A stretch of 64,000 bases of DNA from a virus, in IMG/VR virus record IMGVR_UViG_3300028801_000003. One strand, written 5' to 3'. Within the stretch, counting starts at the first letter, position 1. Each line of letters begins with the position of its first letter. The translations under genes were made by a program, and so were the position numbers. Below the pieces are notes generated by a model that searched no databases, was not told where the DNA came from, and saw nothing but the letters and a program-made list of their open reading frames with translations. Positions 3,328 through 40,464 of this stretch are shown one piece after another.

Positions 3328-3505
3328 AGACTGGATCGCTGGTGCGGTCAAGAAACCGGGTGCCTTGCATGCCGAACTGGGCGTTAAGAAAGGCGACAAA
3401 ATACCTGTCAAGACACTGAGACGCGCCTCCAAAAAGGGTGGTAAGCTCGCCCAGCGGGCGAACTTCGCGCTCGCGATGCACGGCCTACGCCGGCATGACA
3501 GTTAA
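3314..3505 (+). CDS. small basic protein (63 aa), hypothetical
   Basis: ORF track. The ATG is preceded by GAGGATAAGGATC and overlaps the end of the giant gene. The protein is Lys/Arg-rich. Confidence 0.6.
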   Translation: MADDKDWIAGAVKKPGALHAELGVKKGDKIPVKTLRRASKKGGKLAQRANFALAMHGLRRHDS

Positions 3506-3524
3506 CTATCTGAGGTAAAACCAG

Positions 3525-3671
3525 ATGAACAGTGAAATCGAAAGTGCGATGAAAGCGCTGGCCAAGAAGATTGGCGACGATACGCGGCCCATCGACGCGC
3601 TGCAGTTCACGCAGGCGCTATTAAACCTAGCACACGCAAAAGTGATGCTAGCCGACTGCGATAAGCGATAA
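3525..3671 (+). CDS. hypothetical 48-aa protein (below the ORF-track cutoff)
   Basis: Hand translation gives MNSEIESAMKALAKKIGDDTRPIDALQFTQALLNLAHAKVMLADCDKR. AGGT lies 8 nt upstream of the ATG. The ORF fills the gap between neighbouring genes. Confidence 0.5.
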   Translation: MNSEIESAMKALAKKIGDDTRPIDALQFTQALLNLAHAKVMLADCDKR

Positions 3672-3726
3672 AGAGTGCCCAAAGAGGCGCGCCCCCAAGT
3701 CCATCAGCCACGCACCAGGAGTCAGC

Positions 3727-4056
3727 ATGACACCCAAGGAACAAGAAGTCCGGGATAAAGACCCCACACACGTCAGTCGCGACGAAGTTCATCGTCGGAT
3801 CGACCGCGTTGACCACAGCACCCGCGAAGGCGAGAACGTCAGTATTTGCGTCATCACCCTGGACACCGGGTTCAGTGTATCGGCCGAAGTCGATATGCCA
3901 CCGCACGACCTTTCCCGTACGCGTGCGTTCTATAAAGCCATGGACGTGCTCCAGACCGCGATGAACTTCCATCGCCACGAACAACTGCGCTGGATGAAGG
4001 CCCAGGAACAGGAGCTTGATTTCCTGATGGCCACCGGCAAACAGGACGGAGAGTGA
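3727..4056 (+). CDS. small phage protein, possibly N4 gp49 / Sf6 gp66-like
   Basis: ORF track. The core SICVITLDTGFSVSAEV resembles, from memory and unverified, the CxLxLxNGFxVxG core of that family. Confidence 0.55.
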   Translation: MTPKEQEVRDKDPTHVSRDEVHRRIDRVDHSTREGENVSICVITLDTGFSVSAEVDMPPHDLSRTRAFYKAMDVLQTAMNFHRHEQLRWMKAQEQELDFLMATGKQDGE

Positions 4057-4057
4057 T

Positions 4058-4390
4058 ATGACGAACAACGAGTTTAAAGCCTGGTTCGAAGGCTTCAGCG
4101 AAAGCATCGAGCGCACACCGACCGCGAAGCAGTGGGAGAAGATCACGGCGAAGGTCAAGCTGATCGATGGCGCGGTATCCTACCCGTACGTCGTGTATCG
4201 CGATCGGTATGTCGATCGTTATCCAGTATGGCCGTACGGCAACGTCATGACTACGAACGCCAGTATGACAAAAGGACTGAGCGCCGGTGCCGCTACTTCG
4301 GCGATGGGCGCAGATGCGCAGTTGAACAACACACAAAACATGGGCGAGTTCCTACGTAATATGGGCCGGGCAGAAGCTGCCGAATCGTAA
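4058..4390 (+). CDS. hypothetical protein (110 aa)
   Basis: ORF track. It starts 2 nt after the upstream stop. Confidence 0.7.
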   Translation: MTNNEFKAWFEGFSESIERTPTAKQWEKITAKVKLIDGAVSYPYVVYRDRYVDRYPVWPYGNVMTTNASMTKGLSAGAATSAMGADAQLNNTQNMGEFLRNMGRAEAAES

Positions 4391-18536: not shown

Positions 18537-18967
18537 TTACTCTCCCGTGAATCGGCGGACATGGCGTCGTCTATGTATGTCTCAAGAGCTTCGCCAATAG
18601 GCAGAACGGCGTAAGGGTTTACCCGCTTTTTACGAAGCCACCGATACCTAGCCGCATCCTTCGCCCCACCGGAATCGGCTGGAGGGTGGGTGAATAGTGT
18701 CATCGAGTACAGACCGTTGCCGGGGTAAGTTTCATCCCAAGGAATCGAACAAGACTTTCCATCCAGCGTTTCAACTTCAACGAATCGCGGGTCGTTTCCT
18801 TTACGCCAATCAACAATGAAGCGAACCGCCTTCGCATCCTCGCGGGATTTCAGGAGGGCGGCGAGTTGATATGCGGTGGCTTGTAATGCGCGCAAAGATA
18901 CTTCGCCGCCTTCGCCGTCAACCGCATCGGCTAGTTCTTCCGCTTCCTTCGACGTGTACGTTTTCAT
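18533..18967 (-). CDS. hypothetical protein, mosaic module type A
   Basis: ORF track. It shares ALLKSREDAKAV and LFTHPPADSG with 19467..19751, with identical 25-nt and 32-nt DNA blocks. Confidence 0.7.
   Translation of the reverse strand: MKTYTSKEAEELADAVDGEGGEVSLRALQATAYQLAALLKSREDAKAVRFIVDWRKGNDPRFVEVETLDGKSCSIPWDETYPGNGLYSMTLFTHPPADSGGAKDAARYRWLRKKRVNPYAVLPIGEALETYIDDAMSADSRESK
18675..18699. repeat. 25-nt exact repeat (partner at 19513-19537)
   Basis: tcggctggagggtgggtgaatagtg was read at both positions. Confidence 0.85.
18825..18856. repeat. 32-nt exact repeat (partner at 19630-19661)
   Basis: accgccttcgcatcctcgcgggatttcaggag was read at both positions. Confidence 0.85.
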
Positions 18968-19048
18968 TTAACGCATGCCCCACGCGAAGATTAAGATCAA
19001 AACTGCACATCCAAAAAACATGATGAATCCGGAAGGATTAGTTTTCAT
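18968..19048 (-). CDS. small membrane peptide (26 aa)
   Basis: Hand translation gives MKTNPSGFIMFFGCAVLILIFAWGMR. There is an ATGA overlap upstream, and its stop abuts the next ATG. Confidence 0.4.
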   Translation of the reverse strand: MKTNPSGFIMFFGCAVLILIFAWGMR

Positions 19049-19470
19049 GGCGACCTCGGGGCGGCGGCTGTGAAGTAATCAAACACAACTTTGTCGTTGT
19101 ATGTCATGCCAATGCCGCTGCGAAGGACCGCCTTCCTTCCATCTCTGCAACGAATAGCTATGCATTTATGGCCTACGTCAATCTCCCACCCATCCGGCAC
19201 GCCAGTCGATGGCTGGGAGGGTGGCTTCATAGAGCACTTCGATGCCGAATATCCAGAGCGATGCTCGCCCCAGTTCTTATGGCAAGCGGGACATTCCTTA
19301 GGCACAGCCTCACTCTCCCGGCGCTTTAGCTCAAGATCGATGGCGCATACGCATGTCAAAATCGGATATGGATTTGCTTTCCATCCTTCACGCATTACCG
19401 AAATGTATACCTCGCGCAAAACGTCGCACACCTGTTCCAGCGACACGGGATTACTCGGGGTCATGGTCAT
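19045..19470 (-). CDS. hypothetical Cys-rich protein, mosaic module type B
   Basis: ORF track. It shares PPSQPSTGVPDGW and the C-terminal AAPRS with 19842..20195, with identical 36-nt and 18-nt DNA blocks. Confidence 0.7.
   Translation of the reverse strand: MTMTPSNPVSLEQVCDVLREVYISVMREGWKANPYPILTCVCAIDLELKRRESEAVPKECPACHKNWGEHRSGYSASKCSMKPPSQPSTGVPDGWEIDVGHKCIAIRCRDGRKAVLRSGIGMTYNDKVVFDYFTAAAPRSP
19050..19067. repeat. 18-nt exact repeat (partner at 19847-19864)
   Basis: gcgacctcggggcggcgg was read at both positions. It covers the C-terminal AAPRS codons. Confidence 0.8.
19189..19224. repeat. 36-nt exact repeat (partner at 20031-20066)
   Basis: cccatccggcacgccagtcgatggctgggagggtgg was read at both positions. 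Confidence 0.85.
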
Positions 19471-19751
19471 GCGACTTGCTCCTGATCGACATCATTAATG
19501 ACTTCACCGGACTCGGCTGGAGGGTGGGTGAATAGTGGGACTTGCATGTTTGTGGCACAGCACATAGTTTCGTAACCATGTGGTGTTGGCACTATCCCGA
19601 TGTACTCGATTCCACAGTCCGCTATCGCCACCGCCTTCGCATCCTCGCGGGATTTCAGGAGAGCGGCGTATTCACGCAGGAAAACGGGTGTTATTTGATC
19701 GCCACATGACTCTAGAAAGTCTGCATGACGTTCTACATCAACCCTTTTCAT
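19467..19751 (-). CDS. hypothetical protein, mosaic module type A'
   Basis: This is the internal ATG (MKRVDVERHADF...) of track ORF 19467..19829, preceded by GAGGT plus 6 nt. Confidence 0.6.
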   Translation of the reverse strand: MKRVDVERHADFLESCGDQITPVFLREYAALLKSREDAKAVAIADCGIEYIGIVPTPHGYETMCCATNMQVPLFTHPPAESGEVINDVDQEQVA

Positions 19752-19841
19752 ACCAATACCTCGCCATGATCTTTGCAAATTGATACGCATCCTCGGCTTG
19801 CTTACGCATGGCCCTATTAAATAATTCACTCGACGTGTAGT

Positions 19842-20195
19842 TCATAGCGACCTCGGGGCGGCGGATTTAATAGCTTGCTTGAGCGCCTTACCTGTCGCAT
19901 CGAGATGACGAAAGGCACGGTTCGCATCAGGATCGACAATCGCGTTTCTCTCGTTGTAAGGCTTCGACTCTCCACGGAGGGCAAATATGTCATTGACGGC
20001 ACCGAGATACAGTGATGCAGCCAGGATCAACCCATCCGGCACGCCAGTCGATGGCTGGGAGGGTGGGGATGTGTAGAGTGGAACCATTACTGGATTGAGC
20101 TGGACGTAAGATACTTCCATAGCAAGTGCGCGCTTATCTTCCAAGTAGATCGGGTGCACATACCCGACCGGCTTCTCGTTTGTGTAGTTGGTCAC
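19842..20195 (-). CDS. hypothetical protein, mosaic module type B'
   Basis: ORF track. ATGA overlap with the primase-helicase stop. Confidence 0.7.
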   Translation of the reverse strand: MTNYTNEKPVGYVHPIYLEDKRALAMEVSYVQLNPVMVPLYTSPPSQPSTGVPDGLILAASLYLGAVNDIFALRGESKPYNERNAIVDPDANRAFRHLDATGKALKQAIKSAAPRSL

Positions 20196-22639
20196 TTGAT
20201 CGCCCTCACGTTATCGGCTGGCATCTTGACGCCGAGCAGATCGGCGTACATCGTCTGCGCGGCTTCGGACACTTTCCACGCCGGTGCCTTCGTACCACGT
20301 ACCGTTTTATCGTGGCGTTTGTCGAACACGGGTTGATTACTGAGCAGGTTATATCGCTGGAAGATTTGACGTTGCGACGCTTTGGTCTCCGGGAAAATCT
20401 TATCGCTGATCGCGATCATGCGGAACAGGACGTACAGGTCTTCATGGCGCAATGCGGTCAGCGAGCCGTTCATCATCCCGCGAATCAGATCGTCGTATTC
20501 GCGCGATGGCAGCATCTTGCCGGCGAAATCGGTCTGCAGCTGGATGGTCGACGGGCGTACCTCCAGGAAATACTCCACATCGCCTTCGTCGATAGCGCGT
20601 GCGGCGCGATCCAGCAGATTATGCGTCGCCTCATACACACGTGTCTTGGTCTCGCCGACGTATGGTGTGTTTAGTCGGTTGTTATCGACCTGAATTTCGC
20701 CCAGGAACTGAGCGAAGGCTGCCATTTCCAGACCCTCCGTCACTGTCGCCAGTTCGTTGGGCGAGACCAGCAGTCGTTTCTCCTGGAACTCGCCGAAGTT
20801 GAACCGGCGATCGTGCGCCTCGATGACGACCGGGCGCGATTTGCTGTTCGAGCACACGATGAAGTTCGCACTGTTGGTCGCTTCGCGTCCGGCTTTATGC
20901 ATACCGCGGATCACGATCTGGGGCTCGGTGATCCAGTCGCGCAGTTTGCTCATCACGTTGGAGGCGTCGATCGATTTGCTCATCGCCGCTTCGTTCAAGC
21001 TGACAATCAGCTTACCTTCCAGGAACTCGTTGAACTTGTCGTTCACGTGTTCGTACAGTTGCTGCGTCACGGCGTCGTTACCAAACAGGTGCCGGCAAAT
21101 GTAGTTGGTCAAGAACCCTTTACCAGTACCTTCGATGCCAGACACGACCCAGGCGGTGTTTGATTTCTCCCGACGCTGAAATACCGCGGCAATCCAGTTG
21201 AGGAAATAGGTCATTGCGGTCGAGTCGTTCCCCAGTACGCTGTCCAACACACGGTAGGTGACCGGTGCGATGCCTTTGAGATGCTCTTCCAGCTGACCAT
21301 TGACCTGACGTGTACGCGGGATATCGGCGAACTGTTTCACCAGATCGGTCTGGCGATACAGGTTGATCATGGGGTAGCCGTCTTCGAAACGAAGTGCAGA
21401 AGTCATATTGAACACCAGATCGTAATGCGGGAAATTAGGAGCGCGTGGCACGCCGTAGCTGGCCAGCCACGAGTTAGCCGCATCCTTACTCGTCATGTCA
21501 ATACGCAGCTGATCGTTGGCACGGTCGTAGGACCCCACATACAGCTGTGATCCGCGGTTGGTCGCGTAAAACGCCAGTGGTTCGATTGCACAGGACTGCA
21601 TCGCTTTTAGCGGTACGTTTTTCGACGTCTTGATCAGCGCCTTATACAGGTCCGGTGCGACGGATTCGGTGACCAGGAACGGCTCGCCTTTATGGTTCCC
21701 AATCAGGTTGGGGTCTTTCAGGTTGATGTAATATGCCAGCGAATTACCACCGTTGAGGTTGAACCGAATGTATCCTTCGCCCGATGGCTTGATGTCGTGC
21801 ACGACGGCCGGTTCAGCATCGATAAGCATCTCGATGCCCTTATGGGTGCGTGTCGTGTACGGGCGCGCCGGCATGCCTACCGCTTCGCGCAGTTCGGTGA
21901 TCTGTGCATGCAGATCGGCGGCCGGTACACGCTTGAAAGGCGTGATCGTTATGGCGCGTCGTGCGCCGTCGTTGAGAGCAAGAGCTCCTGAGACCGGCGG
22001 GACGAAACCGAAGCAGCGCGGTGGGGCGATATAGATGAGGCGCGAGGGGACACAGACGGATCGATCCAGCGGGAAATGCAGTGCAATGCACGAATCAGAA
22101 AGTTTGATCTGCTTTTTGAGGTGTTCGTTGGTGAAATTAAGATGGGTAATCCAGTCCGTGAGTTCTGCCGTAGTGGCGGGTTTGTCCAGAAGCATGAAAA
22201 TATGGCAGCTGAGCTGGGTGGCGTCGGGGCGAAAGCACGAGCCTGATAGCTGAATAATGGCGTCCACATCCTGGCATTCGGGAGGAAGGTAGCGGGCAAT
22301 GGCGACCAATGCGCCTTCGACAGTGGGAGCGCAGTCCACTTTATCGAAATCGAAGACGACCCAGGAACTGGGAGCGTCGAGCCACGCACCAGCACGAGAT
22401 TCGTTGGCCAGTGGTCGGCTGAGATTCCCTTTAAGGAGGGCGCGGCCTTGCGCTCCATGATCGCCCAGGGCGAAGAAAAAGTCAGTGATGTTATCAACGG
22501 ACTCGACATGGGAGGTTACCTTCTGTACCAGCGGATAGGACGTGGTGTGGTAGGACTGTTCGCGGTTGTTGTACGTGATGGTCTTCGTCAGAGGGACAGG
22601 ACCGGAAAGGAACGTCAAATCCATGAAGGAAGTGTCCAC
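20192..22639 (-). CDS. bifunctional AEP primase-polymerase / SF3 (D5-like) helicase
   Basis: The motifs seen are WVVFDFDKVD (DxD), SCHIFMLLD (sxH), Walker A VSGIEGTGKGF, Walker B-like LIVSLNEA and motif C FIVCSN. Confidence 0.85.
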   Translation of the reverse strand: MDTSFMDLTFLSGPVPLTKTITYNNREQSYHTTSYPLVQKVTSHVESVDNITDFFFALGDHGAQGRALLKGNLSRPLANESRAGAWLDAPSSWVVFDFDKVDCAPTVEGALVAIARYLPPECQDVDAIIQLSGSCFRPDATQLSCHIFMLLDKPATTAELTDWITHLNFTNEHLKKQIKLSDSCIALHFPLDRSVCVPSRLIYIAPPRCFGFVPPVSGALALNDGARRAITITPFKRVPAADLHAQITELREAVGMPARPYTTRTHKGIEMLIDAEPAVVHDIKPSGEGYIRFNLNGGNSLAYYINLKDPNLIGNHKGEPFLVTESVAPDLYKALIKTSKNVPLKAMQSCAIEPLAFYATNRGSQLYVGSYDRANDQLRIDMTSKDAANSWLASYGVPRAPNFPHYDLVFNMTSALRFEDGYPMINLYRQTDLVKQFADIPRTRQVNGQLEEHLKGIAPVTYRVLDSVLGNDSTAMTYFLNWIAAVFQRREKSNTAWVVSGIEGTGKGFLTNYICRHLFGNDAVTQQLYEHVNDKFNEFLEGKLIVSLNEAAMSKSIDASNVMSKLRDWITEPQIVIRGMHKAGREATNSANFIVCSNSKSRPVVIEAHDRRFNFGEFQEKRLLVSPNELATVTEGLEMAAFAQFLGEIQVDNNRLNTPYVGETKTRVYEATHNLLDRAARAIDEGDVEYFLEVRPSTIQLQTDFAGKMLPSREYDDLIRGMMNGSLTALRHEDLYVLFRMIAISDKIFPETKASQRQIFQRYNLLSNQPVFDKRHDKTVRGTKAPAWKVSEAAQTMYADLLGVKMPADNVRAIK

Positions 22640-22900: not shown

Positions 22901-23098
22901 TCATTCAGGTGGGGCGCACTGGATGGAAACTATCTGCGGTGGGTCGTTAATGCTAAACGGCCTGTCGTACCAAGCCACCGCTTTCAGATGCATATCGTTG
23001 CACTGTTTCGTCGCTTCGGTGATCTGCGCATTGGTTAGTGGCGGATGATCCATCGCGCAGCCCTGCAGCAGGAACAGGATCATGAGAAAGGGTTTCAT
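22901..23098 (-). CDS. lipoprotein (65 aa)
   Basis: This is the internal ATG of track ORF 22901..23182. It has the signal MKPFLMILFLLQGC with an LLQGC lipobox. Confidence 0.65.
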   Translation of the reverse strand: MKPFLMILFLLQGCAMDHPPLTNAQITEATKQCNDMHLKAVAWYDRPFSINDPPQIVSIQCAPPE

Positions 23099-23212
23099 GA
23101 TGTTTTTTCCAGTCGCGGCGCTTTGGTGAGTCCTGACAAGATGGTTATCAAGTGTGATATAGGTAATCTGTGGCCAATGCATCAGGTGTTCTCCATGGAT
23201 TCGGCAGTGAGG

Positions 23213-23710
23213 TTAGTACGGCGTGTTGGCTTTGACGCAGGAGTCGTGCTCGTAGCCATCAGCAACGCATGCGTCGATCGCCGCCTGTTGCAGCTGGTAG
23301 CGCCCTTGCGCTGTCGTGATGCCGTATGCTTGCGCCAGCCGGCCATGGGCATCGACGCGGCGTAGCAGCTGACAGTTGGTGTCGGCGACACCCTTACCGG
23401 CGCTAACGCCAAAGCCCGGGCCAGAGACACCCACCTGCGCAGTGTTCATGCAGTTGTCCGAACTGAAACCTGCGGCGTAACCGCCGCTGATAACGGCGGG
23501 CGCTTCGCGGTCCAGACCGGAATAGTGCACGCTCTGGGACGTAGGAATCGGTGCCTGGTTCGAGATGATATTGAGGTTGGTGTTCTGCGCGTTGCCTTGA
23601 TTGGCCTTCACGTCGCTGGATGAACCCGATGATGCACCTGATTGGCTGGTGCTCTGCGCGAAGCAGGGAGCGACGACGAACAACGCGATAAGTACGAGTA
23701 GCTTTTTCAT
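23213..23710 (-). CDS. secreted protein (165 aa) with signal peptide and 4 mature-region Cys
   Basis: This is the internal ATG of track ORF 23213..23746. It has the signal MKKLLVLIALFVVAPCFAQ. Confidence 0.7.
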   Translation of the reverse strand: MKKLLVLIALFVVAPCFAQSTSQSGASSGSSSDVKANQGNAQNTNLNIISNQAPIPTSQSVHYSGLDREAPAVISGGYAAGFSSDNCMNTAQVGVSGPGFGVSAGKGVADTNCQLLRRVDAHGRLAQAYGITTAQGRYQLQQAAIDACVADGYEHDSCVKANTPY

Positions 23711-23744
23711 GATGTGTTCCCCGTGAATTGGTTGATGGTTCACC

Positions 23745-23772
23745 AAAAAACCCCCTGGCTTTCGCCAGAGGG
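23745..23772 (-). terminator. rho-independent terminator (minus strand)
   Basis: On the minus strand the sequence reads CCCTCTGGC GAAA GCCAGGGGG followed by TTTTTT. Confidence 0.8.
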
Positions 23773-23797
23773 TTCGTTGTCACGCATGAACCAGAAC

Positions 23798-24187
23798 TTA
23801 GAAATTGAAGCCGGCGAAACCGCCAAACGTTGCCCCTGCCGCACCGGCTGCGGCATTACTCGCAGCCGAACCACTGGCATTGCCCTTGGCCTTACCGCTG
23901 GACTTGCCGTTGACCGTGTTGCTGGAGCTCGTGGCCGAACCGGTGGTCACGGTGACGCCGCTCTTGCCCGTCTTGGTGCTGACACCTGCCGAACCTTCGG
24001 TCGTATTGCTGTCGCTGTCGGTGGCCTTACCGGTATCGTTGACACTGCCACCGGCCGAGCTCGATGCACCGGACTGCGAAACAGCGATGCCACCGGCGAT
24101 TGAACCACCAGCCGATGCGCCATTGTTGTGTGCGAACGCGGTACCACATGCCAGGCACAAGACCAAAGCGATGAACATGTTCTTCAT
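23798..24187 (-). CDS. secreted Gly/Ser/Thr/Ala-rich low-complexity protein (129 aa)
   Basis: This is the internal ATG of track ORF 23798..24286. It has the signal MKNMFIALVLCLACGTAFA and the C-terminus FGGFAGFNF. It has its own terminator downstream and an ~300-nt non-coding region upstream. Confidence 0.7.
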   Translation of the reverse strand: MKNMFIALVLCLACGTAFAHNNGASAGGSIAGGIAVSQSGASSSAGGSVNDTGKATDSDSNTTEGSAGVSTKTGKSGVTVTTGSATSSSNTVNGKSSGKAKGNASGSAASNAAAGAAGATFGGFAGFNF

Positions 24188-24503
24188 GAGTTTTCCCTCT
24201 GAGGTTTGGGTGCGGAGAAAGAACAGTCGGTGTCCACCCATACCATCGACTGTGTTAGTGAAAAATGTCGGCTCCGACATGCACATCGGTTTCTATCGTT
24301 CGCCTGCCGACCTGCGAACTTGCGCCTTCGGAGCGCAAAACTGAGGCCCTATCGCCGGGAGGGCCATCCCGTGGAATGTATTCGGCAAACTCCCACTCAC
24401 CGGAGGAGCGACTCACCGACTGTCTGCATGTGTTTCGAGATCGACATATAGTCCGAGTTACTCTACGCACATCGATGCAAAAAGTGGCTGCCTTATTCAC
24501 GCG

Positions 24504-24686
24504 TTACTCCTCCGTTGCCCGCAGGAGCGAAATTTCAACAATGGGCCAGTTATGGTCTGTGTACCAACGGTATGTCTCCATTTTCTTGCGTACTTCAGAA
24601 ACATCACGTGATAAAGTGTCCAGTAACATTTGTGCAGATAAACCAGTAGTCGGTGCACTTCGGTAAACCAGTGCGTAGTAGCTCAT
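24504..24686 (-). CDS. small paralog array member 17 (divergent)
   Basis: ORF track. ATGA overlap with member 16. The C-terminus is NWPIVEISLLRATEE. Confidence 0.55.
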   Translation of the reverse strand: MSYYALVYRSAPTTGLSAQMLLDTLSRDVSEVRKKMETYRWYTDHNWPIVEISLLRATEE

Positions 24687-24895
24687 GACACGCGTTCTGC
24701 CGTGAGCTGCACGACATCCCAGCCATAACTACGCGCTACCTGCCACGTGCTATGGGGGTTACGCGGAAGACAGAGATTACGGCTCTCTTCCTGCGTGCGT
24801 GCGATGGTATCAACGATAATACGCACGAAGTGCACATCGCTCGCTGAGACGTTGGTTGTGCCACATACGTGCAAGGCCCAGATCAGTGTCTTCAT
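24683..24895 (-). CDS. small paralog array member 16
   Basis: The internal ATG (MKTLIWALHV...) overlaps the upstream TGA. It shows the motifs TIARTQEES and WDVVQLTAERVS. Confidence 0.6.
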   Translation of the reverse strand: MKTLIWALHVCGTTNVSASDVHFVRIIVDTIARTQEESRNLCLPRNPHSTWQVARSYGWDVVQLTAERVS

Positions 24896-25089
24896 GATAC
24901 GCGCTCCAACTTGAAGCAACGTGGTGTGTAGTCTGCCACACTGTGATCGGTTTCGATGCGCGCGATGGCGATGCATTGCTCTGCCGTGCGACTGAATGTT
25001 GCGCGACAGATTCGATCGCCCAGATGCGCGATGACGTCGTTATTGTCATTGATGCTGTATGCGTCGTTGTAGATCATCCAGAAGTGCAT
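24892..25089 (-). CDS. small paralog array member 15
   Basis: This is the internal ATG (MHFWMIYNDAY...) preceded by AGGAGG. It shows the motifs TFSRTAEQC and YTPRCFKLERVS. Confidence 0.65.
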   Translation of the reverse strand: MHFWMIYNDAYSINDNNDVIAHLGDRICRATFSRTAEQCIAIARIETDHSVADYTPRCFKLERVS

Positions 25090-25099
25090 GGATCGCCTC

Positions 25100-25735
25100 C
25101 TAAACAATGATCCCGTTGATATGTCGTAATAGATAACGAGGAAACAGCGCTGCCACAGTCGTTGATGGCGTACGACGTTGCTCCAGGTTCCACAAACGAA
25201 GATCGAAGGTCGGCGAAATACGTACGCGGTGATGTCCAAGGTCCTGATCGATCCACGCCTTGATCTCGACACCGGTTTTTGTACCGATGTCATTGGCCGT
25301 GCATGTCAGGATGGAGTGCATTTTGTCGTTCGCTTCGAAGAACGTGACTTCGTAGAGCGTCGTTTGGCTAACCATTTGCGGCGCAGTCGGATAGCCTCTA
25401 ACAGGAAATTTGGGTAGACCGGTGGTGACCTGGACACGTCGAGCTTCAGGGAGCGGCGCAGGCGTGCGATCTCCACTTTCAGTTCGTTCGAGTCCATCGT
25501 CATATAGGTCTGGAGCCAGTTGGTATCGCTCAAACGTACGGTCAATGGCATCAGCAATCGCCTTCATAACACCTGCGTAGAGGGCATAGCCTATCAGGAA
25601 CAGGATGATGGACGCGGCGAGCTCCTTGGCGCTGATCAGCGGCAGGAGCAGGGCGAAGAGCACTGTCGCCAAGAGGAACGCACATAGTACCAAGAGCGCG
25701 GAAGGGAGGAACGGTCGCAGCCAGCCCAGTTTCAT
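25100..25735 (-). CDS. membrane protein (211 aa, two N-terminal TM segments)
   Basis: ORF track. It contains LLVLCAFLLATVLFALLLPLI and IILFLIGYALYAGV. ATGA overlap upstream. Confidence 0.7.
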   Translation of the reverse strand: MKLGWLRPFLPSALLVLCAFLLATVLFALLLPLISAKELAASIILFLIGYALYAGVMKAIADAIDRTFERYQLAPDLYDDGLERTESGDRTPAPLPEARRVQVTTGLPKFPVRGYPTAPQMVSQTTLYEVTFFEANDKMHSILTCTANDIGTKTGVEIKAWIDQDLGHHRVRISPTFDLRLWNLEQRRTPSTTVAALFPRYLLRHINGIIV

Positions 25736-26151
25736 GTCGTTACTCCCAGCTTGATGCGTTTCTTCGTGCCGGTCGTCTTTGGCCCAAAGTGCTCACACAT
25801 ATACATGCGCGTAATCAGCTCGGGCATCTCGTCCTCGACGACGCGGGCCTGCATCATACGCTCATCCTGAATCGCGTCATAGGCGCCTTCGGTTGCCCCG
25901 GTTATCCAGTCCGCGCCGATACGCAGCCCGGAGAGCAGTGCTTCGCGCAGGATATCGGCTGAGGTATCCGTTACGACGGCGCCCTTTGTGCGTTCAGCGT
26001 TGTCTTCGAACCTCGCACAAAGATCGAGGAGGGCATTAACCAGGTGCTTGTCCTCGATGCGCGACAGCGGTTTATTCAGAAGAATGCGTTCAGCTGCGCT
26101 GGTGAGCAGGATCACCAGCATCGAGGGTGGGGGGTTACGGACGCGGCTCAT
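25732..26151 (-). CDS. hypothetical protein (139 aa)
   Basis: ORF track. TAATG overlap upstream. Confidence 0.65.
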   Translation of the reverse strand: MSRVRNPPPSMLVILLTSAAERILLNKPLSRIEDKHLVNALLDLCARFEDNAERTKGAVVTDTSADILREALLSGLRIGADWITGATEGAYDAIQDERMMQARVVEDEMPELITRMYMCEHFGPKTTGTKKRIKLGVTT

Positions 26152-26375
26152 TACGAGGCCAACGGCTTGACGAGGTACTTGTGCACGACACAGCCGCGCT
26201 CGGTCAGATCGCGTTTGATCTTCTGCGCATCCTGCGTGATGCCCGTAGCGCGCTGGCGATTGCTCGCAAGCATCGTCCAGCAGTCTTCCGGGTCTTTACC
26301 CGCCGACGCCAGGAGTGGTTCGCCTTCCTTACCCTTGAGGTCCGGCTCGGCAACGAAATACAGATACATGGCCAT
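26151..26375 (-). CDS. hypothetical protein (74 aa)
   Basis: The internal ATG (MAMYLYFVAEPD...) is preceded by AAGGAG plus 7 nt. Confidence 0.6.
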   Translation of the reverse strand: MAMYLYFVAEPDLKGKEGEPLLASAGKDPEDCWTMLASNRQRATGITQDAQKIKRDLTERGCVVHKYLVKPLAS

Positions 26376-26624
26376 GAATTGTCTCCTTCGTGTAAATCGA
26401 AAAAAGTTGTGAACGGGAATGGTGAAACGTGTGACGCGCGTCGCACTAAGTGTTTGGATCGTGTACAACGCATACCAGTCATGGCGCCATGTTTGGCATT
26501 TGTCGCGGATAAGATGTTTATTACCTTCGCGTTCTATGCTGTAGAACGTTTTTATGATCAACGATAGTCTGCCGTCACCCCAACTATCGTCGTGGCATAC
26601 GGCGCAGAACGGCCAGCTCTTCAT
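26151..26624 (-). CDS. small paralog array member 14, without its own stop codon; reads in frame into the 74-aa ORF
   Basis: The ATG at 26624 overlaps the TGA of member 13 (ATGA). The family-like end WRHDWYALYTIQTLSATRVT is followed by 18 in-frame codons spanning the RBS of the next gene. Confidence 0.45.
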   Translation of the reverse strand: MKSWPFCAVCHDDSWGDGRLSLIIKTFYSIEREGNKHLIRDKCQTWRHDWYALYTIQTLSATRVTRFTIPVHNFFRFTRRRQFMAMYLYFVAEPDLKGKEGEPLLASAGKDPEDCWTMLASNRQRATGITQDAQKIKRDLTERGCVVHKYLVKPLAS

Positions 26625-26848
26625 ACGCGCCTCAATTCGCAGGGTTGGACTATGCGATTGCGCTCGTTGTTGCCCTTGGGTGTTCTTGGGTCTGTCAAGT
26701 ACAGTTCCCGCGTGCTGGCTCGATCTGTGCTGATCGCGGCGCGAATATGCGGGCACAGGTTGAGCCACTGCTGTGTTAATTCGTACTTACTTAGGTGATA
26801 CTCAGTAGCGTAATCGGGGTACTGTTTCGAAACGATGTAAATGATCAC
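26621..26848 (-). CDS. small paralog array member 13
   Basis: ORF track. The GTG start (MIIYIVSK) is preceded by AAGGAGG. The C-terminus is VQPCELRRV. Confidence 0.6.
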   Translation of the reverse strand: MIIYIVSKQYPDYATEYHLSKYELTQQWLNLCPHIRAAISTDRASTRELYLTDPRTPKGNNERNRIVQPCELRRV

Positions 26849-27129
26849 GGTACCCTCCTTACTGCGGTCCGTGTCGGTCGCCAGATACGCCTATTCCCAT
26901 ACTGATAAATCTCATCAGTTTGAGATAACTGACACAATTCGGCGGTGCGTGCTATGCAGCACATAACAATCTCGTCGTAGAGGTACAGGTACTGTAGATC
27001 ACTATCGTTGTACATCGTGCTTACATTTATATCCCATGGCATATACACGATACGCGCGATACATTGTTTCTTTACAGGCCGCTGCGCACATAGTGCGTCG
27101 AGATTCGATCGAGGAATGAAACGGTTCAT
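26845..27129 (-). CDS. small paralog array member 12 (N-terminally extended)
   Basis: The internal ATG overlaps the upstream TGA. It shows the motifs IVYMPWDINV, CIARTAELC and WRPTRTAVRRVP. Confidence 0.6.
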   Translation of the reverse strand: MNRFIPRSNLDALCAQRPVKKQCIARIVYMPWDINVSTMYNDSDLQYLYLYDEIVMCCIARTAELCQLSQTDEIYQYGNRRIWRPTRTAVRRVP

Positions 27130-27317
27130 GACACACGACTCAGTTCGACGCGATACGGATGCCATCGATTATTACGTTCCATGTGACTGATCGTTTCTGC
27201 GGTCAGTTCTTCATAGTGAGAGAATGAGTTCCTTACCCATGCGTGGTTGAGCCATATCTGTGTGTGTTCGTGTTTATAGCCAGTCAGGAAAGCCATGTGC
27301 CATTTCATGTAGATCAT
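27126..27317 (-). CDS. small paralog array member 11
   Basis: The internal ATG overlaps the upstream TGA. The protein reads MIYMKWHMAFLTG ... SFSH ... WHPYRVELSRVS. Confidence 0.7.
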   Translation of the reverse strand: MIYMKWHMAFLTGYKHEHTQIWLNHAWVRNSFSHYEELTAETISHMERNNRWHPYRVELSRVS

Positions 27318-27529
27318 GGCGCACGCTCCAGTTCGGCGCCGAAGGTACAGCGCCTGAATCCTCCCGTGCATGTGCCGCGCTCTTTCGCTGAATGTTGAGC
27401 GCCGATCTTCGTACGATGAAAATCGAGATACGTGTATATGGTATCGGGCATAAGAATACGTAGGCGGTGCGCGATCGTATCCTCGATGTAATACCGATAT
27501 GATCCGGTGCGGCACATATAGATTTTCAT
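27314..27529 (-). CDS. small paralog array member 10
   Basis: ORF track. The N-terminus is MKIYMCRTG and the C-terminus is FGAELERAP. ATGA overlaps on both sides. Confidence 0.6.
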   Translation of the reverse strand: MKIYMCRTGSYRYYIEDTIAHRLRILMPDTIYTYLDFHRTKIGAQHSAKERGTCTGGFRRCTFGAELERAP

Positions 27530-27717
27530 GCTATGCGCTCCAGCTCAAAGCTTCGCACGGTGTTCGATCCGATGAGGAACTCCAATCCGATCGCGTTAGT
27601 GGATGCAGCGTTGCTACAGATGCTGTGCGCGTGTTCAAAGAGAAAAGCCTGATCGGAAGGGACTATTCCAGTCATCCCTTTTCCCCATTGGCTATCAAGT
27701 ACGCAGAAGGCGATCAC
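27526..27717 (-). CDS. small paralog array member 9
   Basis: The GTG at 27717 overlaps the upstream TGA (GTGA). The protein reads IAFCVLDSQW ... VRSFELERIA. Confidence 0.55.
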   Translation of the reverse strand: MIAFCVLDSQWGKGMTGIVPSDQAFLFEHAHSICSNAASTNAIGLEFLIGSNTVRSFELERIA

Positions 27718-27920
27718 GGCGTACGCTCGATCAGGAATGCCGTCGCGGTTTGATGGGGTGGTCCGTAGTTTTGTGTGTTGTTGTATTCGCGGGCGGCCAC
27801 AATAGCTGTGTACGAGTCCCAGGCGATGCACTGGTAATTCCAGCTGAATAGCCAGTTGTTTAATGTTCTTTCTGTCCATTCGCTCACGGCAGGATGAGGT
27901 GCATAGACTTTAAATATCAT
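27714..27920 (-). CDS. small paralog array member 8
   Basis: The internal ATG overlaps the upstream TGA. The protein reads MIFKVYAPHP ... TAFLIERTP. Confidence 0.6.
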   Translation of the reverse strand: MIFKVYAPHPAVSEWTERTLNNWLFSWNYQCIAWDSYTAIVAAREYNNTQNYGPPHQTATAFLIERTP

Positions 27921-28114
27921 GTCACCCTCCGCACTATGCATTGATAGGGACGCCACGTTGTTTGCTGTACGTTGTATAGGTGCTGACAATCTATGGGGCT
28001 GCGCGCAAACGAACGCTGAACTAACGCGTTCATGGTCATGTAATAGATACGCGCTTGCGTTTGTTGTTCAGCATGTCCAAAGAGATCGTGGTGCCACATC
28101 ACATACACAGTCAC
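27917..28114 (-). CDS. small paralog array member 7
   Basis: The GTG at 28114 overlaps the upstream TGA. The protein reads TVYVMWHHDLFG ... SFARS ... WRPYQCIVRRVT. Confidence 0.7.
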   Translation of the reverse strand: MTVYVMWHHDLFGHAEQQTQARIYYMTMNALVQRSFARSPIDCQHLYNVQQTTWRPYQCIVRRVT

Positions 28115-28323
28115 TGCCGCACCAGTTTTATTTGCATCGTAGTGCGTGCGTCGAGAACCGCTTGTCGTGTTGTTTGCTCGCGGCGATACCAGAATTCGAC
28201 ACAAAGTTCCATCGTCTCTTCCGCACTTCGTCCGATGGTGTTTTCGAGTTCTTTGATTTCGGAGTTCAGTCCGAACAGCCTACTTTCGTAGTAATTTATA
28301 TGTCGTACGCAGAAATAGATCAT
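28111..28323 (-). CDS. small paralog array member 6
   Basis: The internal ATG overlaps the upstream TGA. The protein reads MIYFCVRHINYY ... TMQIKLVRQ. Confidence 0.6.
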   Translation of the reverse strand: MIYFCVRHINYYESRLFGLNSEIKELENTIGRSAEETMELCVEFWYRREQTTRQAVLDARTTMQIKLVRQ

Positions 28324-28559
28324 GGCGTCTCCCGCTCGATCAAAAGAGGTCGACCGACGAACTGTCTGCATGATCGAGTATCTGGGTTGTGTCTATTAAC
28401 TTTATCGCCCGAGGCAGCTAATAGCCGCATGAGTTCCATGCTATCGACAGGGTTACGTGCCAGTGTCGCGATGTTCCATTGACGCATGATCCAGTTTTCG
28501 ATGTATAGATCAGTCCATCCCTGCGTGCAGCTCTCATGAATAGCGGCGAAAATGATCAT
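28320..28559 (-). CDS. small paralog array member 5
   Basis: ORF track. The protein reads MIIFAAIHES ... GRPLLIERETP. ATGA overlaps on both sides. Confidence 0.6.
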   Translation of the reverse strand: MIIFAAIHESCTQGWTDLYIENWIMRQWNIATLARNPVDSMELMRLLAASGDKVNRHNPDTRSCRQFVGRPLLIERETP

Positions 28560-28759
28560 GGCACGCGTACCAGTTCAAAGCGACAGGGAACAAAAGTGCG
28601 GTTCGTGTAGCGCCCCGTGGGTCGCTGGAGTGCCGCTTCGCGCCCACAGCTCCGCGCGTCGCGCTGGATGGTAAGGCGTGTTTTTGGGTCGGCGAAATAG
28701 CTCATGGTGGGGCTACTTGTCAGATTATAGGGGGATATGCTCATTATCCAGATAATCAC
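28556..28759 (-). CDS. small paralog array member 4
   Basis: ORF track. The protein reads MIIWIMSISP ... VPCRFELVRVP. Confidence 0.6.
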   Translation of the reverse strand: MIIWIMSISPYNLTSSPTMSYFADPKTRLTIQRDARSCGREAALQRPTGRYTNRTFVPCRFELVRVP

Positions 28760-28965
28760 GTAACCCTCCTTATCTGTAAGCGATGCGGGCGCCAGCCGTT
28801 ACGTACAGCGCCAACGGTGATGGTGTGGTCGCACGCCGTTCGTTTGCGCGACAAGGTGTAGCGCTTCGATAGAAGCAGCGACTGTAAGTAACCCTCCGCG
28901 TCGATGATGTGATCAGGTACGTCGTGCGTCGAGCTAAGTTCTGGGCGCCAGGCGATGTAGATCAT
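28756..28965 (-). CDS. small paralog array member 3
   Basis: The internal ATG overlaps the upstream TGA. The protein reads MIYIAWRPELSS ... GWRPHRLQIRRVT. Confidence 0.7.
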   Translation of the reverse strand: MIYIAWRPELSSTHDVPDHIIDAEGYLQSLLLSKRYTLSRKRTACDHTITVGAVRNGWRPHRLQIRRVT

Positions 28966-29150
28966 ACGCGGGTCAACTGGACGCGTATGGGGCACCACGC
29001 GTTGAATTGCATGTTGAAGTACGTGCTAAACACTTCTTCAGCATGTCGAGCGAAGCTACTACGAATGACTTTGTCATTCATCCATGTATCGAGTATTTCA
29101 CTGTGTTTAAAGTTGATCAGGGATGGGTGCCAGCACATCCAGGCTACCAC
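28962..29150 (-). CDS. small paralog array member 2
   Basis: GTG at 29150, with a 7-nt overlap with member 1. The protein reads VAWMCWHPSLINF ... SFARH ... WCPIRVQLTRV. Confidence 0.65.
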   Translation of the reverse strand: MVAWMCWHPSLINFKHSEILDTWMNDKVIRSSFARHAEEVFSTYFNMQFNAWCPIRVQLTRV

Positions 29151-29338
29151 TGCCGCACCAGTTCGCACCGGTAGGCGTGCCATGATTGCGGCATGATTTT
29201 CGAGGGGGAGTACAACTGTTCGACGTGCTTCGCACTACGAGCGAAGTAATCACGTTTGGTGTGCAGGTTTGTGAGTTTTGCGCGGTCGTCGTAGACGTTA
29301 CCCATCAATGCTGGGTGCCAGATCATAAAACAGTTCAC
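29144..29338 (-). CDS. small paralog array member 1
   Basis: ORF track (GTG start). The protein reads NCFMIWHPALMG ... YFARS ... WHAYRCELVRQW. Confidence 0.7.
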   Translation of the reverse strand: MNCFMIWHPALMGNVYDDRAKLTNLHTKRDYFARSAKHVEQLYSPSKIMPQSWHAYRCELVRQW

Positions 29339-29339
29339 G

Positions 29340-29816
29340 TTAGCCCTCCAGCATGGTTTGATCGTTTTGGGGTTTAGGTACGGCGCGTTTACGGTTCAGG
29401 ATGGCGTCGAGCTGCGCGAAGGTCATGGGTGCGCTGTAGCTCGCAGCTAAGTCCTCGATGCGCTGTGCTATGTACAAGCGCGACGCATAGGTGCGTGGGA
29501 ACTTGAGCTTCATGGCGATACGCGTCAGTTGTGCGCTGGTGTAACGCTTCAGGATATTGACGGTCGTTACGCTATCGGGGGATTTGTCTACCATATGACT
29601 GACGTCGAATTTGTCGGCGTTATTTTGGTGGATGCGTTTGCTTAGTTCCATGCGTTCTTCGAGTGTCTTCAGATCCCAGTTCCAGTCGTTGGCCTTAGTG
29701 ACGATGGCTCGATCAGCTTCTTCGCGGGTCAGCTTCTGGTAGTCGATGCTAAGCGCCAGGCACAGGTGGCGACGCTGCGAAGAGCTAAGAGCTAGGACAT
29801 CTTTGGGTTTGATCAC
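29340..29816 (-). CDS. hypothetical protein (158 aa); first gene downstream of the AT-rich control island
   Basis: ORF track. GTG start with AAGGAAA upstream. Confidence 0.7.
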   Translation of the reverse strand: MIKPKDVLALSSSQRRHLCLALSIDYQKLTREEADRAIVTKANDWNWDLKTLEERMELSKRIHQNNADKFDVSHMVDKSPDSVTTVNILKRYTSAQLTRIAMKLKFPRTYASRLYIAQRIEDLAASYSAPMTFAQLDAILNRKRAVPKPQNDQTMLEG

Positions 29817-29955: not shown

Positions 29956-30186
29956 GCCAGAGAGATACACAGTTAAGATTTTGTTAATTCTTTGGCTGGA
30001 TCGTCGATCTGGAAAAATGTAATGGCTATCTGATGCGGTTTGTAGGTGTTTTGGTTGTGCTTATCAGGATGTCGGAGACGTGTCAACTCTGTTCAGAATG
30101 TGTATACTATTTTCTAAGGAATCATATAGTTATAAAAAAAAGCTGTTCAGTTACAAAAATATCTTTTCCAAACTTTTTTGATTTCG

Positions 30187-30210
30187 GAGTATTGTTGTAC
30201 AACAATACTC
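30187..30210. promoter_or_regulatory. 24-bp perfect palindrome (candidate operator)
   Basis: GAGTATTGTTGTACAACAATACTC equals its own reverse complement. It starts immediately downstream of the candidate -10 element of the leftward promoter. Confidence 0.6.
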
Positions 30211-30559: not shown

Positions 30560-30591
30560 ATAAAAATACGCAGCGGCTTTCGCCGCTGCGT
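30560..30591 (-). terminator. rho-independent terminator (minus strand)
   Basis: On the minus strand the stem ACGCAGCGGC GAAA GCCGCTGCGT is followed by ATTTTTAT. Confidence 0.75.
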
Positions 30592-40014: not shown

Positions 40015-40464
40015 ATGAGTATGCTAACCGCCGACGAACAGAAGCTGGTCTATAACATCGAAGTGATGGGGATGACCCAGCTGCGGGCGGCGCAGCTGTG
40101 CGGGCTGGAAACGACCTACGCCAATATATTGATGCGCCCAGAGGTCAAAATTGCACGCGAGAAATTGCGCGCGCACGTGCGCGAACAGGTCAAGATCACC
40201 CGCGAAGATGTGGTCGCTGGCCTGCAGGAAGCGATCGAGATGTCACGTATGATCACTGACCCCATGGCGATGATTGCCGCGTGGCGCGAAACGGCCAAGA
40301 TTCTGGGCTTCGATAAGCCAGCCGAAGTGCATATCACTATCACCGGCGATATCCGCGAGCTGCGCCAACAGATCAAATCCCTGCCCGAGGCCGAATTGCT
40401 GCGTCTGGCGGATGAAAGTAACATCGTCGACGCCGATTTCTATCCCATCGAGCGTACCGCGTGA
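40015..40464 (+). CDS. terS: terminase small subunit
   Basis: ORF track. It has an N-terminal HTH-like segment (MTQLRAAQLCGL) and lies immediately upstream of, and overlapping, terL. Confidence 0.7.
   Translation: MSMLTADEQKLVYNIEVMGMTQLRAAQLCGLETTYANILMRPEVKIAREKLRAHVREQVKITREDVVAGLQEAIEMSRMITDPMAMIAAWRETAKILGFDKPAEVHITITGDIRELRQQIKSLPEAELLRLADESNIVDADFYPIERTA

Follow-up and report, generated by a model that had tools for sequence, protein, structure and literature searches.

An array of overlapping small genes in an uncultured podophage and its previously undescribed protein family

The virus record IMGVR_UViG_3300028801_000003 of IMG/VR, a stretch of 64,000 nucleotides hereafter called the window, holds the nearly full genome of an uncultured podophage of ~65 kb. 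On its minus strand, positions 24504-29338 are occupied by 19 consecutive open reading frames (ORFs; g01 to g19), which lie downstream of a 158-aa head gene and were traced from position 29816. Seventeen of these ORFs, counting the first 83 codons of g14, are small (60-95 codons) and are interrupted only by the C-terminal part of g14 (g14C), g15 and g16; the array occupies ~4 kb. The members are almost certainly true paralogues of one small-protein family, which is previously undescribed, real, old and clade-specific. A preliminary description, made from the sequence of the window, had given the coordinates and the count of 17 ORFs correctly, and tracing of the minus strand confirmed that the ORFs are chained by stop-start overlaps.

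A family of small paralogous proteins

The three motifs that had been described earlier were found in the members: an N-terminal M-I-x-[WYF], a central [TS]-[IF]-[AS]-R-[ST]-[AP]-E-x-C and a C-terminal W-x-P...L-x-R-V-[STP]. An all-versus-all BLASTP comparison within the window revealed a clear core composed of g01, g02, g07 and g11, with the other pairs being marginal; g02 and g11 match with E=9e-7 after the removal of 2 N-terminal and 8 C-terminal residues. An exhaustive HMMER search with the core alignment against 1.84 billion representative proteins recovered four small proteins from other contigs. These outside homologues exhibit the same N-terminal, central and C-terminal features, and their contigs carry further chained members. 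The central motif is recognisable in most members of the window phage, of the contigs L007, L009 and L010, and of a third phage, UViG_3300010383_000008.

The family was also evaluated with its termini masked. A profile was built from non-window members only, and the first 3 and last 8 residues were cut from the profile sequences and from the targets; the controls were 567 ORF segments taken elsewhere in the window and 1717 shuffles. In 13 of the 17 window members, the score exceeded that of every control ORF and of at least 99.7% of the shuffles. The scores of g03 (2.5 bits), g09 (1.7 bits), g10 (0.6 bits) and the N-terminal part of g14 (g14N; 0.2 bits) were not significant in this masked external profile; g03 is recognisable only with the termini included, and the other three have no detectable relation to the family apart from their ends. 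With a second profile of 45 external members, in which the third phage was included, 10 members reached p<0.005 and 3 more reached p<0.05. In every member, the GC content at third codon positions exceeds that at second positions. The preliminary description had cautioned that part of the C-terminal conservation is encoded by the Shine-Dalgarno sequence of the next gene, and had named a profile comparison with a masked C-terminus as the check. The caution is correct for the junction-encoded C-terminal part but does not account for the family similarity: the similarity was not lost in the comparison that had been named as decisive, and its persistence in 13 of 17 members marks a family of paralogous proteins rather than an effect of the junctions.

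The structure of the most typical member, g17, was predicted with AlphaFold2 from an alignment of the 17 paralogues (predicted local distance difference test, pLDDT, 89; predicted template-modelling score, pTM, 0.70). The model has a β-α-α-α-β layout with a strand at residues 2-8, helices at 16-24, 26-30 and 36-46, and a strand at 54-60. The first strand is made up of the conserved N-terminus and begins immediately behind the start Met. Residues 31-39 hold the central motif, which precedes and enters the helix 36-46 and whose S/T-x-x-E pattern is that expected of a helix-capping box. The last strand comprises the conserved W-x-P together with the hydrophobic run; the R-V-[STP] tail lies outside it. 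The conserved positions thus coincide with secondary-structure elements, and the stretches between them vary in length and sequence.

The preliminary description had not recognised the family, and no database did so either. None of the 17 members has a match in Pfam-A, PHROGs v4 or NCBIfam 20 at E<=0.01, and a sequence-profile search of the PDB gave E=1. In Foldseek, for which E<0.001 or a template-modelling (TM) score >0.5 to an annotated structure was taken as the criterion, nothing significant was found (best PDB match E=0.79, TM 0.25; best BFVD match E=0.16); TM scores of 0.5-0.6 were obtained only to uncharacterised small phage proteins with E>=0.4. A tblastn search of g11 against phages returned noise only. 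In word-indexed protein searches, two family alignments and g14 recovered the same phage, fragments of L007 and L009 and one short ENA contig, and nothing else. Protein-anchored scans of IMG/VR with the 278-aa gene upstream of the array, the lysozyme and the head-gene alignment gave no match.

W, C, H, Y and R are abundant in the members, and G, K and A are scarce. Their isoelectric points (pI) range from 5.0 to 10.4, with 10 of the 17 above 7.8. No signal peptide or membrane segment was found in the members, and secretion or membrane targeting was rejected because the N-terminal hydrophobic run comprises just 5-7 residues. A zinc or disulfide site was also rejected: the two frequently conserved Cys residues are replaced by V/T in several members, and g11 has no Cys.

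All genes of the operon are on the minus strand; lengths, coordinates and masked scores are given in parentheses. The head gene (158 aa; 29340-29816) is not a family member, and its orthologues have 162 aa in L007 and 150 aa in UViG_3300010383_000008. It is followed by g01 (64 aa; 29144-29338; 10.8 bits), whose GTG start lies 5 nt past a GGAGGG motif, and g02 (62 aa; 28962-29150; 24.4 bits, and 30.4 bits in the second profile). The next gene, g03 (69 aa; 28756-28965), qualifies as a member through its termini and central motif and scores 14.5 bits at full length. The members g04 (67 aa; 28556-28759; 10.8 bits), g05 (79 aa; 28320-28559; 10.8 bits), g06 (70 aa; 28111-28323; 10.1 bits), g07 (65 aa; 27917-28114; 17.8 bits) and g08 (68 aa; 27714-27920; 13.3 bits) follow, with g05 matching best to the second domain of a fusion protein encoded by L007. 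Both g09 (63 aa; 27526-27717; ends MIAF... and ...FELERIA) and g10 (71 aa; 27314-27529) are in the chain and have family-like ends. Three further members are g11 (63 aa; 27126-27317; 12 bits), g12 (94 aa; 26845-27129; 21.4 bits), which has a 26-residue N-terminal extension also found in L010 and L007 members, and g13 (75 aa; 26621-26848; 8.6 bits). In g14 (157 aa; 26151-26624), a degenerate family-like N-part (26376-26624) is joined to a conserved C-part of 74 residues (26151-26375). The other two genes of the conserved trio, g15 (139 aa; 25732-26151) and g16 (211 aa; 25100-25735), are unrelated to the family, and g16 has a hydrophobic N-terminus and resembles a membrane protein. The array resumes with g17 (65 aa; 24892-25089; 29.4 bits) and g18 (70 aa; 24683-24895; 9.2 bits) and ends with g19 (60 aa; 24504-24686; 12.4 bits), which terminates with TAA and is followed by a ~300-nt gap. 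An 81-codon minus-strand ORF (24255-24500), which starts 4 nt past g19, shows a weak match (VTRTICRSRNTC; E=0.056) to the central family motif only and may be a decayed twentieth member.

The GC content is 50.8-51.9% in the family parts, 56.7% in the interrupting trio and 57.1% in the whole window, so that the AT-richness attributed to the block earlier is real but modest. Public gene calls on L005, a contig of the same phage, omit g02-g05, g07 and g09 (6 of 17 ORFs) from the equivalent of window 26621-29150 and truncate g14; because of these omissions, automated annotation hides the array.

Junctions, promoter region and expression

The genes of the array are joined by 15 exact ATGA/GTGA overlaps, 12 of which, from g02/g03 to g13/g14, are consecutive 4-nt overlaps. 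The three other junctions are a 7-nt overlap at g01/g02 (GTGGTAG), a 1-nt overlap at g14/g15 (TAATG) and a 10-nt spacer with AGGAGG at g16/g17, which provides g17 with its own Shine-Dalgarno sequence. Thirty-five junctions from four phages yield the consensus cTGGaGCG.GTG.C|ATGA|tCgtcT. In this consensus, GGAG occupies positions -12 to -9, 8 nt ahead of the start codon, which is a normal Shine-Dalgarno distance. A Shine-Dalgarno core of at least 4 nt is present inside the last codons of the upstream gene in 24 of 40 junctions. The G that closes the variable codon before the C-terminal Arg is strongly conserved despite amino-acid variation and is a nucleotide-level signal. Conversely, the codons of the invariant Arg itself are CGC, CGT, CGG and AGG, their third position being free, so that this residue is selected as an amino acid. 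About 25 nt per junction are therefore doubly constrained, at the RNA and protein levels. Folding of 39 junctions of 70 nt was no better than that of shuffles (mean z = 0.06, standard deviation 1.18), and no terminator-like site was found on the coding strand inside the array. A first scan of IMG/VR with the junction pattern returned nothing. A two-junction pattern had two chance matches in repeat-rich non-phage DNA of the JGI metagenomes, and on other IMG/VR contigs the junction pattern has chance matches only.

These features probably reflect co-transcription followed by translational coupling through termination-reinitiation. The genes would be transcribed together from a conserved sigma-70-like promoter beside a phage-specific palindrome. 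Each UGA stop overlaps the next start (AUGA/GUGA), and the GGAG-like Shine-Dalgarno sequence 8 nt upstream would support coupled reinitiation that needs no stable RNA structure. As in other bacterial and phage operons with ATGA overlaps, the stop and start codons overlap, the Shine-Dalgarno sequence lies in the upstream coding sequence and internal terminators are lacking. Unlike in ordinary operons of this type, the chain is unusually long and regular, and the junction is embedded in conserved protein C- and N-termini.

Ahead of the array, ~2.8 kb of other leftward small genes and the 278-aa gene end at a terminator-like hairpin (30568-30591, minus strand; 10-bp stem with 8 GC pairs, then a T-run), which closes the upstream leftward unit. 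The hairpin is followed by a 68-aa coiled-coil gene and then by a 492-nt spacer of 35.6% GC. A sigma-70-like promoter candidate (30121-30149, minus strand; TGAACA, 17 nt, TATGAT) is located within a ~45-nt block (30121-30160; TTTTGTAACTGAAC...TATATGATTCCTTAG). The block has a nearly identical counterpart in L007, where the surrounding spacer of 35% GC cannot be aligned, and is partly recognisable in UViG_3300010383_000008. Just upstream of the promoter-like block, a perfect 24-nt palindrome, GAGTATTGTTGTACAACAATACTC (30187-30210), is a candidate regulator-binding site. At the same relative position, L007 (3740-3840) has a different perfect palindrome of 26 nt (ATGTGACGTCACATGTGACGTCACAT), which suggests that phage-specific regulators may act at a shared promoter. 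The promoter and the palindromes fit a host-RNA-polymerase promoter under the control of a putative phage-specific DNA-binding protein. With respect to an anti-CRISPR or anti-defence locus, no helix-turn-helix gene, as expected for an Aca-type regulator, was found in the operon, in which the palindromic site precedes the promoter, and no homology to any entry of Pfam or PHROGs was detected. The preliminary description had placed the array behind its own promoter and among the first regions to be transcribed. The array does have a promoter region of its own, but it does not open the early arm, since the ~2.8 kb of genes and the hairpin precede it.

Related phages and the evolution of the array

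A syntenic array is present in L007, L008 and UViG_3300010383_000008, and chained members occur in L009, L010 and a JGI contig of 1.4 kb. L007, a Logan contig of 10.3 kb, contains a 297-aa gene, a spacer of 35% GC, the 162-aa head gene, a 164-aa insert, ~14 chained members, orthologues of g14, g15 and g16, and 4 further members. UViG_3300010383_000008, reassembled from chunks, was the sole additional full genome from the IMG/VR and metagenome scans. It comprises 65,202 bp, is circular with a 55-nt terminal repeat, has ~62% GC and encodes a primase that is 66% identical to that of the window phage. Its gene order is a 318-aa orthologue, the spacer, the 150-aa head gene, 14 members, the trio and 7 members. 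The last of these members is ATGA-coupled to a gene for a 230-aa metallophosphoesterase (L002ext 3382-4074), which contains GDIHG...GNHE motifs and resembles the lambda-phosphatase type of Ser/Thr phosphatase; the window phage has no phosphatase gene at that position. The same genome also carries a singleton member (L002 8200-8473; MQLWAMLNHW...RCSFARERQD...VKLTRVPSKRQYK) alone among its replication genes. The singleton is closest to the last pre-trio member of L007 (37% over 70 aa), and a member has thus left the array.

The array is retained by at least two other, diverged phages, with one layout in all three: the head gene, 13-15 members, the same interrupting trio and 3-7 further members. 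Member totals are ~17 in the window phage, ~19 in L007 and 21 in UViG_3300010383_000008, which bears out the copy-number variation among related phages that had been anticipated. The closest pair of paralogues within any genome shares 41% identity over 58 residues. With termini masked, 12 significant pairs were found between genomes and 6 within genomes. One-to-one orthologues are recognisable for only some members and are not collinear; g11, for example, matches the first post-trio member of L007. Recent near-identical tandem copies of the genomic-accordion type are absent, the maximum within-genome identity being 41%. Because of this low identity and the predominance of between-genome pairs, the array is composed of old diverged subfamilies and is not the result of a recent expansion. 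The earlier view of an expanding family was therefore not borne out, and the pattern is one of slow gain, loss and reshuffling of old subfamilies, as judged from the sequences compared. Fusions are located exactly at junctions, which is consistent with junction-mediated events without proving them. One of them, P0015 in L007, is a 159-aa protein with two family domains fused in frame; MAFFT placed all paralogues on its second domain, even with trimmed termini.

The trio presents a similar continuity. The C-part of g14 (74 residues) is 58-72% identical in four phages, and gene callers annotate just these final 74 codons. In all four phages, the g14 frame is open upstream through a segment in which the central motif persists in degenerate form, as YSIEREGNKH in the window phage, NSLCRNRAEL in L007, HSLQRDPDEC in UViG_3300010383_000008 and YSISREETE in P0020. 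With the masked profile, the N-part from UViG_3300010383_000008 reaches 10.4 bits (p<0.001). Because the frame is open in all four phages and this N-part scores as a member, the continuity of the two parts is a conserved feature. The proposal that member 26376-26624 had recently lost its stop by accident was thus not upheld. In an AlphaFold prediction of full-length g14 from a 2-sequence alignment, the N-part is uninterpretable (pLDDT ~30), and the C-part has a strand-strand-helix-helix-strand layout (pLDDT 57-86). The resemblance of the C-part to the family is confined to its layout and a SAGKDPEDC motif, and an hhalign comparison over 14 columns fell short of significance (P=0.07); it is only suggestive that g14C is a slow-evolving family member. 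No PHROGs match was found for the head gene or the trio.

PHROG matches in the window include a primase (20192-22639), a helicase, a DNA polymerase, the large terminase, a portal and the major head protein. The major head protein is 56% identical to those of the Pseudomonas phages KPP25 and phiR18 (Kochitakasuvirus), the closest cultured relatives. The window phage resembles them in its genome of ~64 kb, its divergent early and late arms, and its related primase, helicase and DNA polymerase. Unlike the array phages, KPP25 has no family member (best hidden Markov model match E=0.35) and no paralogues among its 31 early proteins, and 4-nt overlaps occur at 5 of 30 junctions in its early arm. The family was also not found in the more distant relatives L003 and L004. 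A megablast search of the array region against 50,697 phage records gave no nucleotide match. In a scan of GTDB genomes with the head protein, the sole match (58% identity) was a mis-binned contig of a metagenome-assembled genome, which gives no host clue.

The same phage occurs on contigs of ~64.5-65.2 kb in ENA, JGI and Logan assemblies, with 99.9-100% identity. Among these, L005, L006 and L011, from different ENA or JGI samples, are 100%, 99.98% and 99.9% identical to the window phage, and one of its proteins is indexed in 92 blocks of the sequence collection. The window phage is unusually clonal and widespread or, possibly, a recurrent contaminant.

The genome is divided at ~33100. To the left, genes are on the minus strand and run toward the replication genes; lysis and structural genes are on the plus strand and run rightward. 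The 880-aa large terminase (40461-43103, plus strand) contains an intein, with Pfam Intein_splicing at residues 324-557 and Hint-type matches, which separates the ATPase from the nuclease domain. Between the array and the primase, three consecutive small genes (22901-24187, minus strand) have a secreted- or lipoprotein-like appearance, with signal-peptide-like N-termini, Gly/Ser-rich bodies and, in one of them, an LQGC lipobox. Directly downstream of the primase, five short direct-repeat blocks (18660-20220; 22-39 nt, 77-100% identical) each recur at a spacing of ~800-842 bp, which indicates a diverged tandem duplication of an ~840-bp segment.

Possible functions of the array

We favour the reading that the array is one polycistronic operon which encodes an old, clade-specific family of soluble α/β proteins that act as diversified binders, and assign to it as a whole a probability of about 0.45. 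The proteins share a fold-defining framework, which consists of the N-terminal strand, the helix N-cap motif, and the C-terminal strand with its L-x-R-V-[STP] tail, and differ greatly in the sequence between these elements. They would constitute a panel of binders on one scaffold, each for a different host protein or host variant, and the panel would be kept by slow birth-and-death evolution, not by rapid amplification. The use of such a panel in host takeover or counter-defence is a tentative, weakly inferred proposal. It is favoured because conservation is confined to fold-determining positions, because the intervening stretches and the overall charge vary widely, because copy number and order drift between phages, and because the genes lie in an accessory, early-type part of the genome. 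The lack of paralogues and family members in the closest cultured relative, KPP25, also supports a panel of binders.

Known viral gene clusters resemble the array in part. The SPO1 gp37-gp60 module and the T7 class I genes are host-takeover or early accessory clusters of lytic phages and consist of unrelated genes. The array is like them in having many small genes on a leftward early-type arm, between a regulatory region and replication genes, with a host-type promoter, no database homologues and fast evolution; unlike in these clusters, at least 13 of its 17 genes are paralogues of a single fold. Viral multigene families include the MGF families of African swine fever virus (ASFV), the 'genomic accordions' of poxviruses and the multi-copy AcrID1-like family of rudiviruses. 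Like them, the array comprises many tandem small paralogues that differ in copy number and lie in a variable accessory part of the genome. Accordion-type families consist of recent, highly similar copies. In the array, by contrast, identity does not exceed 41%, the subfamilies predate the split of the phages and the members are strictly coupled. For a tailed phage of 65 kb, a paralogue array of this size is unusual.

Several observations weigh against diversified binders. The contigs of the window phage are 99.9-100% identical to it and thus display no population variation, and the lack of recent duplicates (identity <=41%) is unlike the trace of a fast arms race by amplification. Neither sequence nor fold connects any member with known anti-defence, takeover or regulatory proteins. 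The family membership of g09, g10, g14N and partly g03 cannot be demonstrated, the g17 model was built on paralogues of a single genome, and expression timing is inferred from position and promoter type only. Finally, strict coupling leads to approximately equimolar products, as would be expected of a multi-subunit assembly no less than of independent effectors.

The last point leads to the main rival, which we consider unlikely: the paralogues would be subunits of a hetero-oligomer, in which the terminal β-strands of neighbouring products pair into a larger sheet or filament. Equimolar delivery by strict stop-start coupling along the entire chain is consistent with such an assembly. The predicted fold has only two long strands, both at the chain ends, and a layout of this kind usually needs a partner to complete the sheet. 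Natural in-frame fusions (P0015 in L007; the N- and C-parts of g14 in four phages) point in the same direction. A hetero-oligomer is, however, difficult to reconcile with a copy number that varies from ~17 to ~19 and 21, with a gene order that is not conserved, with one-to-one orthologues for only some members, and with the singleton that stands alone in the replication module of UViG_3300010383_000008. In a more specific and improbable form, the collinear operon would encode a protein chain of ~20 equimolar paralogues, each of which pairs with the product of the neighbouring cistron through terminal strands. The chain might form an ordered hetero-polymer or a combinatorial scaffold in the infected cell, with the two-domain protein of L007 and g14 as fixed links. 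If true, these phages would build an intracellular structure of a new kind.

The remaining readings are less likely than a panel of binders. Nucleic-acid-binding regulators or chaperones, whose conserved Arg and aromatic residues would contact DNA or RNA, are doubtful. Three near-invariant Arg residues, two conserved Trp positions and the pI above 7.8 in 10 of 17 members are compatible with this role, and the fold comparison had as its weak, non-significant neighbours ferredoxin-like domains that bind RNA or nucleotides (RRM, Cas2, PII-like). These fold matches have only E>=0.8 and TM<=0.33, however; several members are acidic (pI 5.0-6.7), no helix-turn-helix or ribbon-helix-helix signature was found in Pfam, and ~20 different regulators in a 65-kb phage are hard to motivate.

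It is very unlikely that the array is a translational relay, in which the ORFs stay open and coupled so that ribosomes reach g14C, g15 and g16 (in the relative, the phosphatase gene) and the proteins themselves are largely dispensable. The central motif is far from the junctions, and the predicted fold is conserved across phages with members <40% identical. In addition, g17 has a strong Shine-Dalgarno sequence of its own after the spacer, which indicates that coupling is not obligatory for the downstream genes, and the 3-7 members that follow the trio would, in the window phage, have no gene to relay ribosomes to. What a relay would explain is that the trio is much better conserved than the members (58-72% identity for g14C across four phages) and has a GC content like the rest of the genome, with AT-richer family parts; the unusual composition of the members and the retention of just the junction-proximal ends of the family pattern in g09 and g10 are also in its favour. 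The view that the repeated ~20-nt junction is a DNA or RNA site placed every ~200 nt, with the protein family as a by-product, can appeal to a consensus (CTGGAGCG(Y)G..C-ATGA-TC) whose conservation in three phages exceeds that of most of the protein sequence, but it is close to refuted by more than 50 consecutive inter-junction segments that are open in the ATGA-set register in three phages, by the similarity that persists without the termini, by Arg codons that switch from CGN to AGG with the amino acid kept, by the lack of excess RNA structure at junctions, and by the absence of the pattern from other IMG/VR contigs except for chance matches.

To our knowledge, tailed phages of this size rarely tolerate paralogues. 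The present clade devotes ~6-7% of its genome to 17-21 copies of one undescribed fold, and the maintenance of this arrangement through deep divergence argues for a strong benefit that depends on many different copies. The family is invisible to current annotation. Its junctions offer a clean natural case in which ~25 nt serve jointly as Shine-Dalgarno sequence, stop, start, protein C-terminus and protein N-terminus. If the members assemble together, they would represent a new type of phage-encoded structure. If they are host-directed binders, as we favour, the array would amount to a natural library built on a single small scaffold and could point to new host targets or defence systems.

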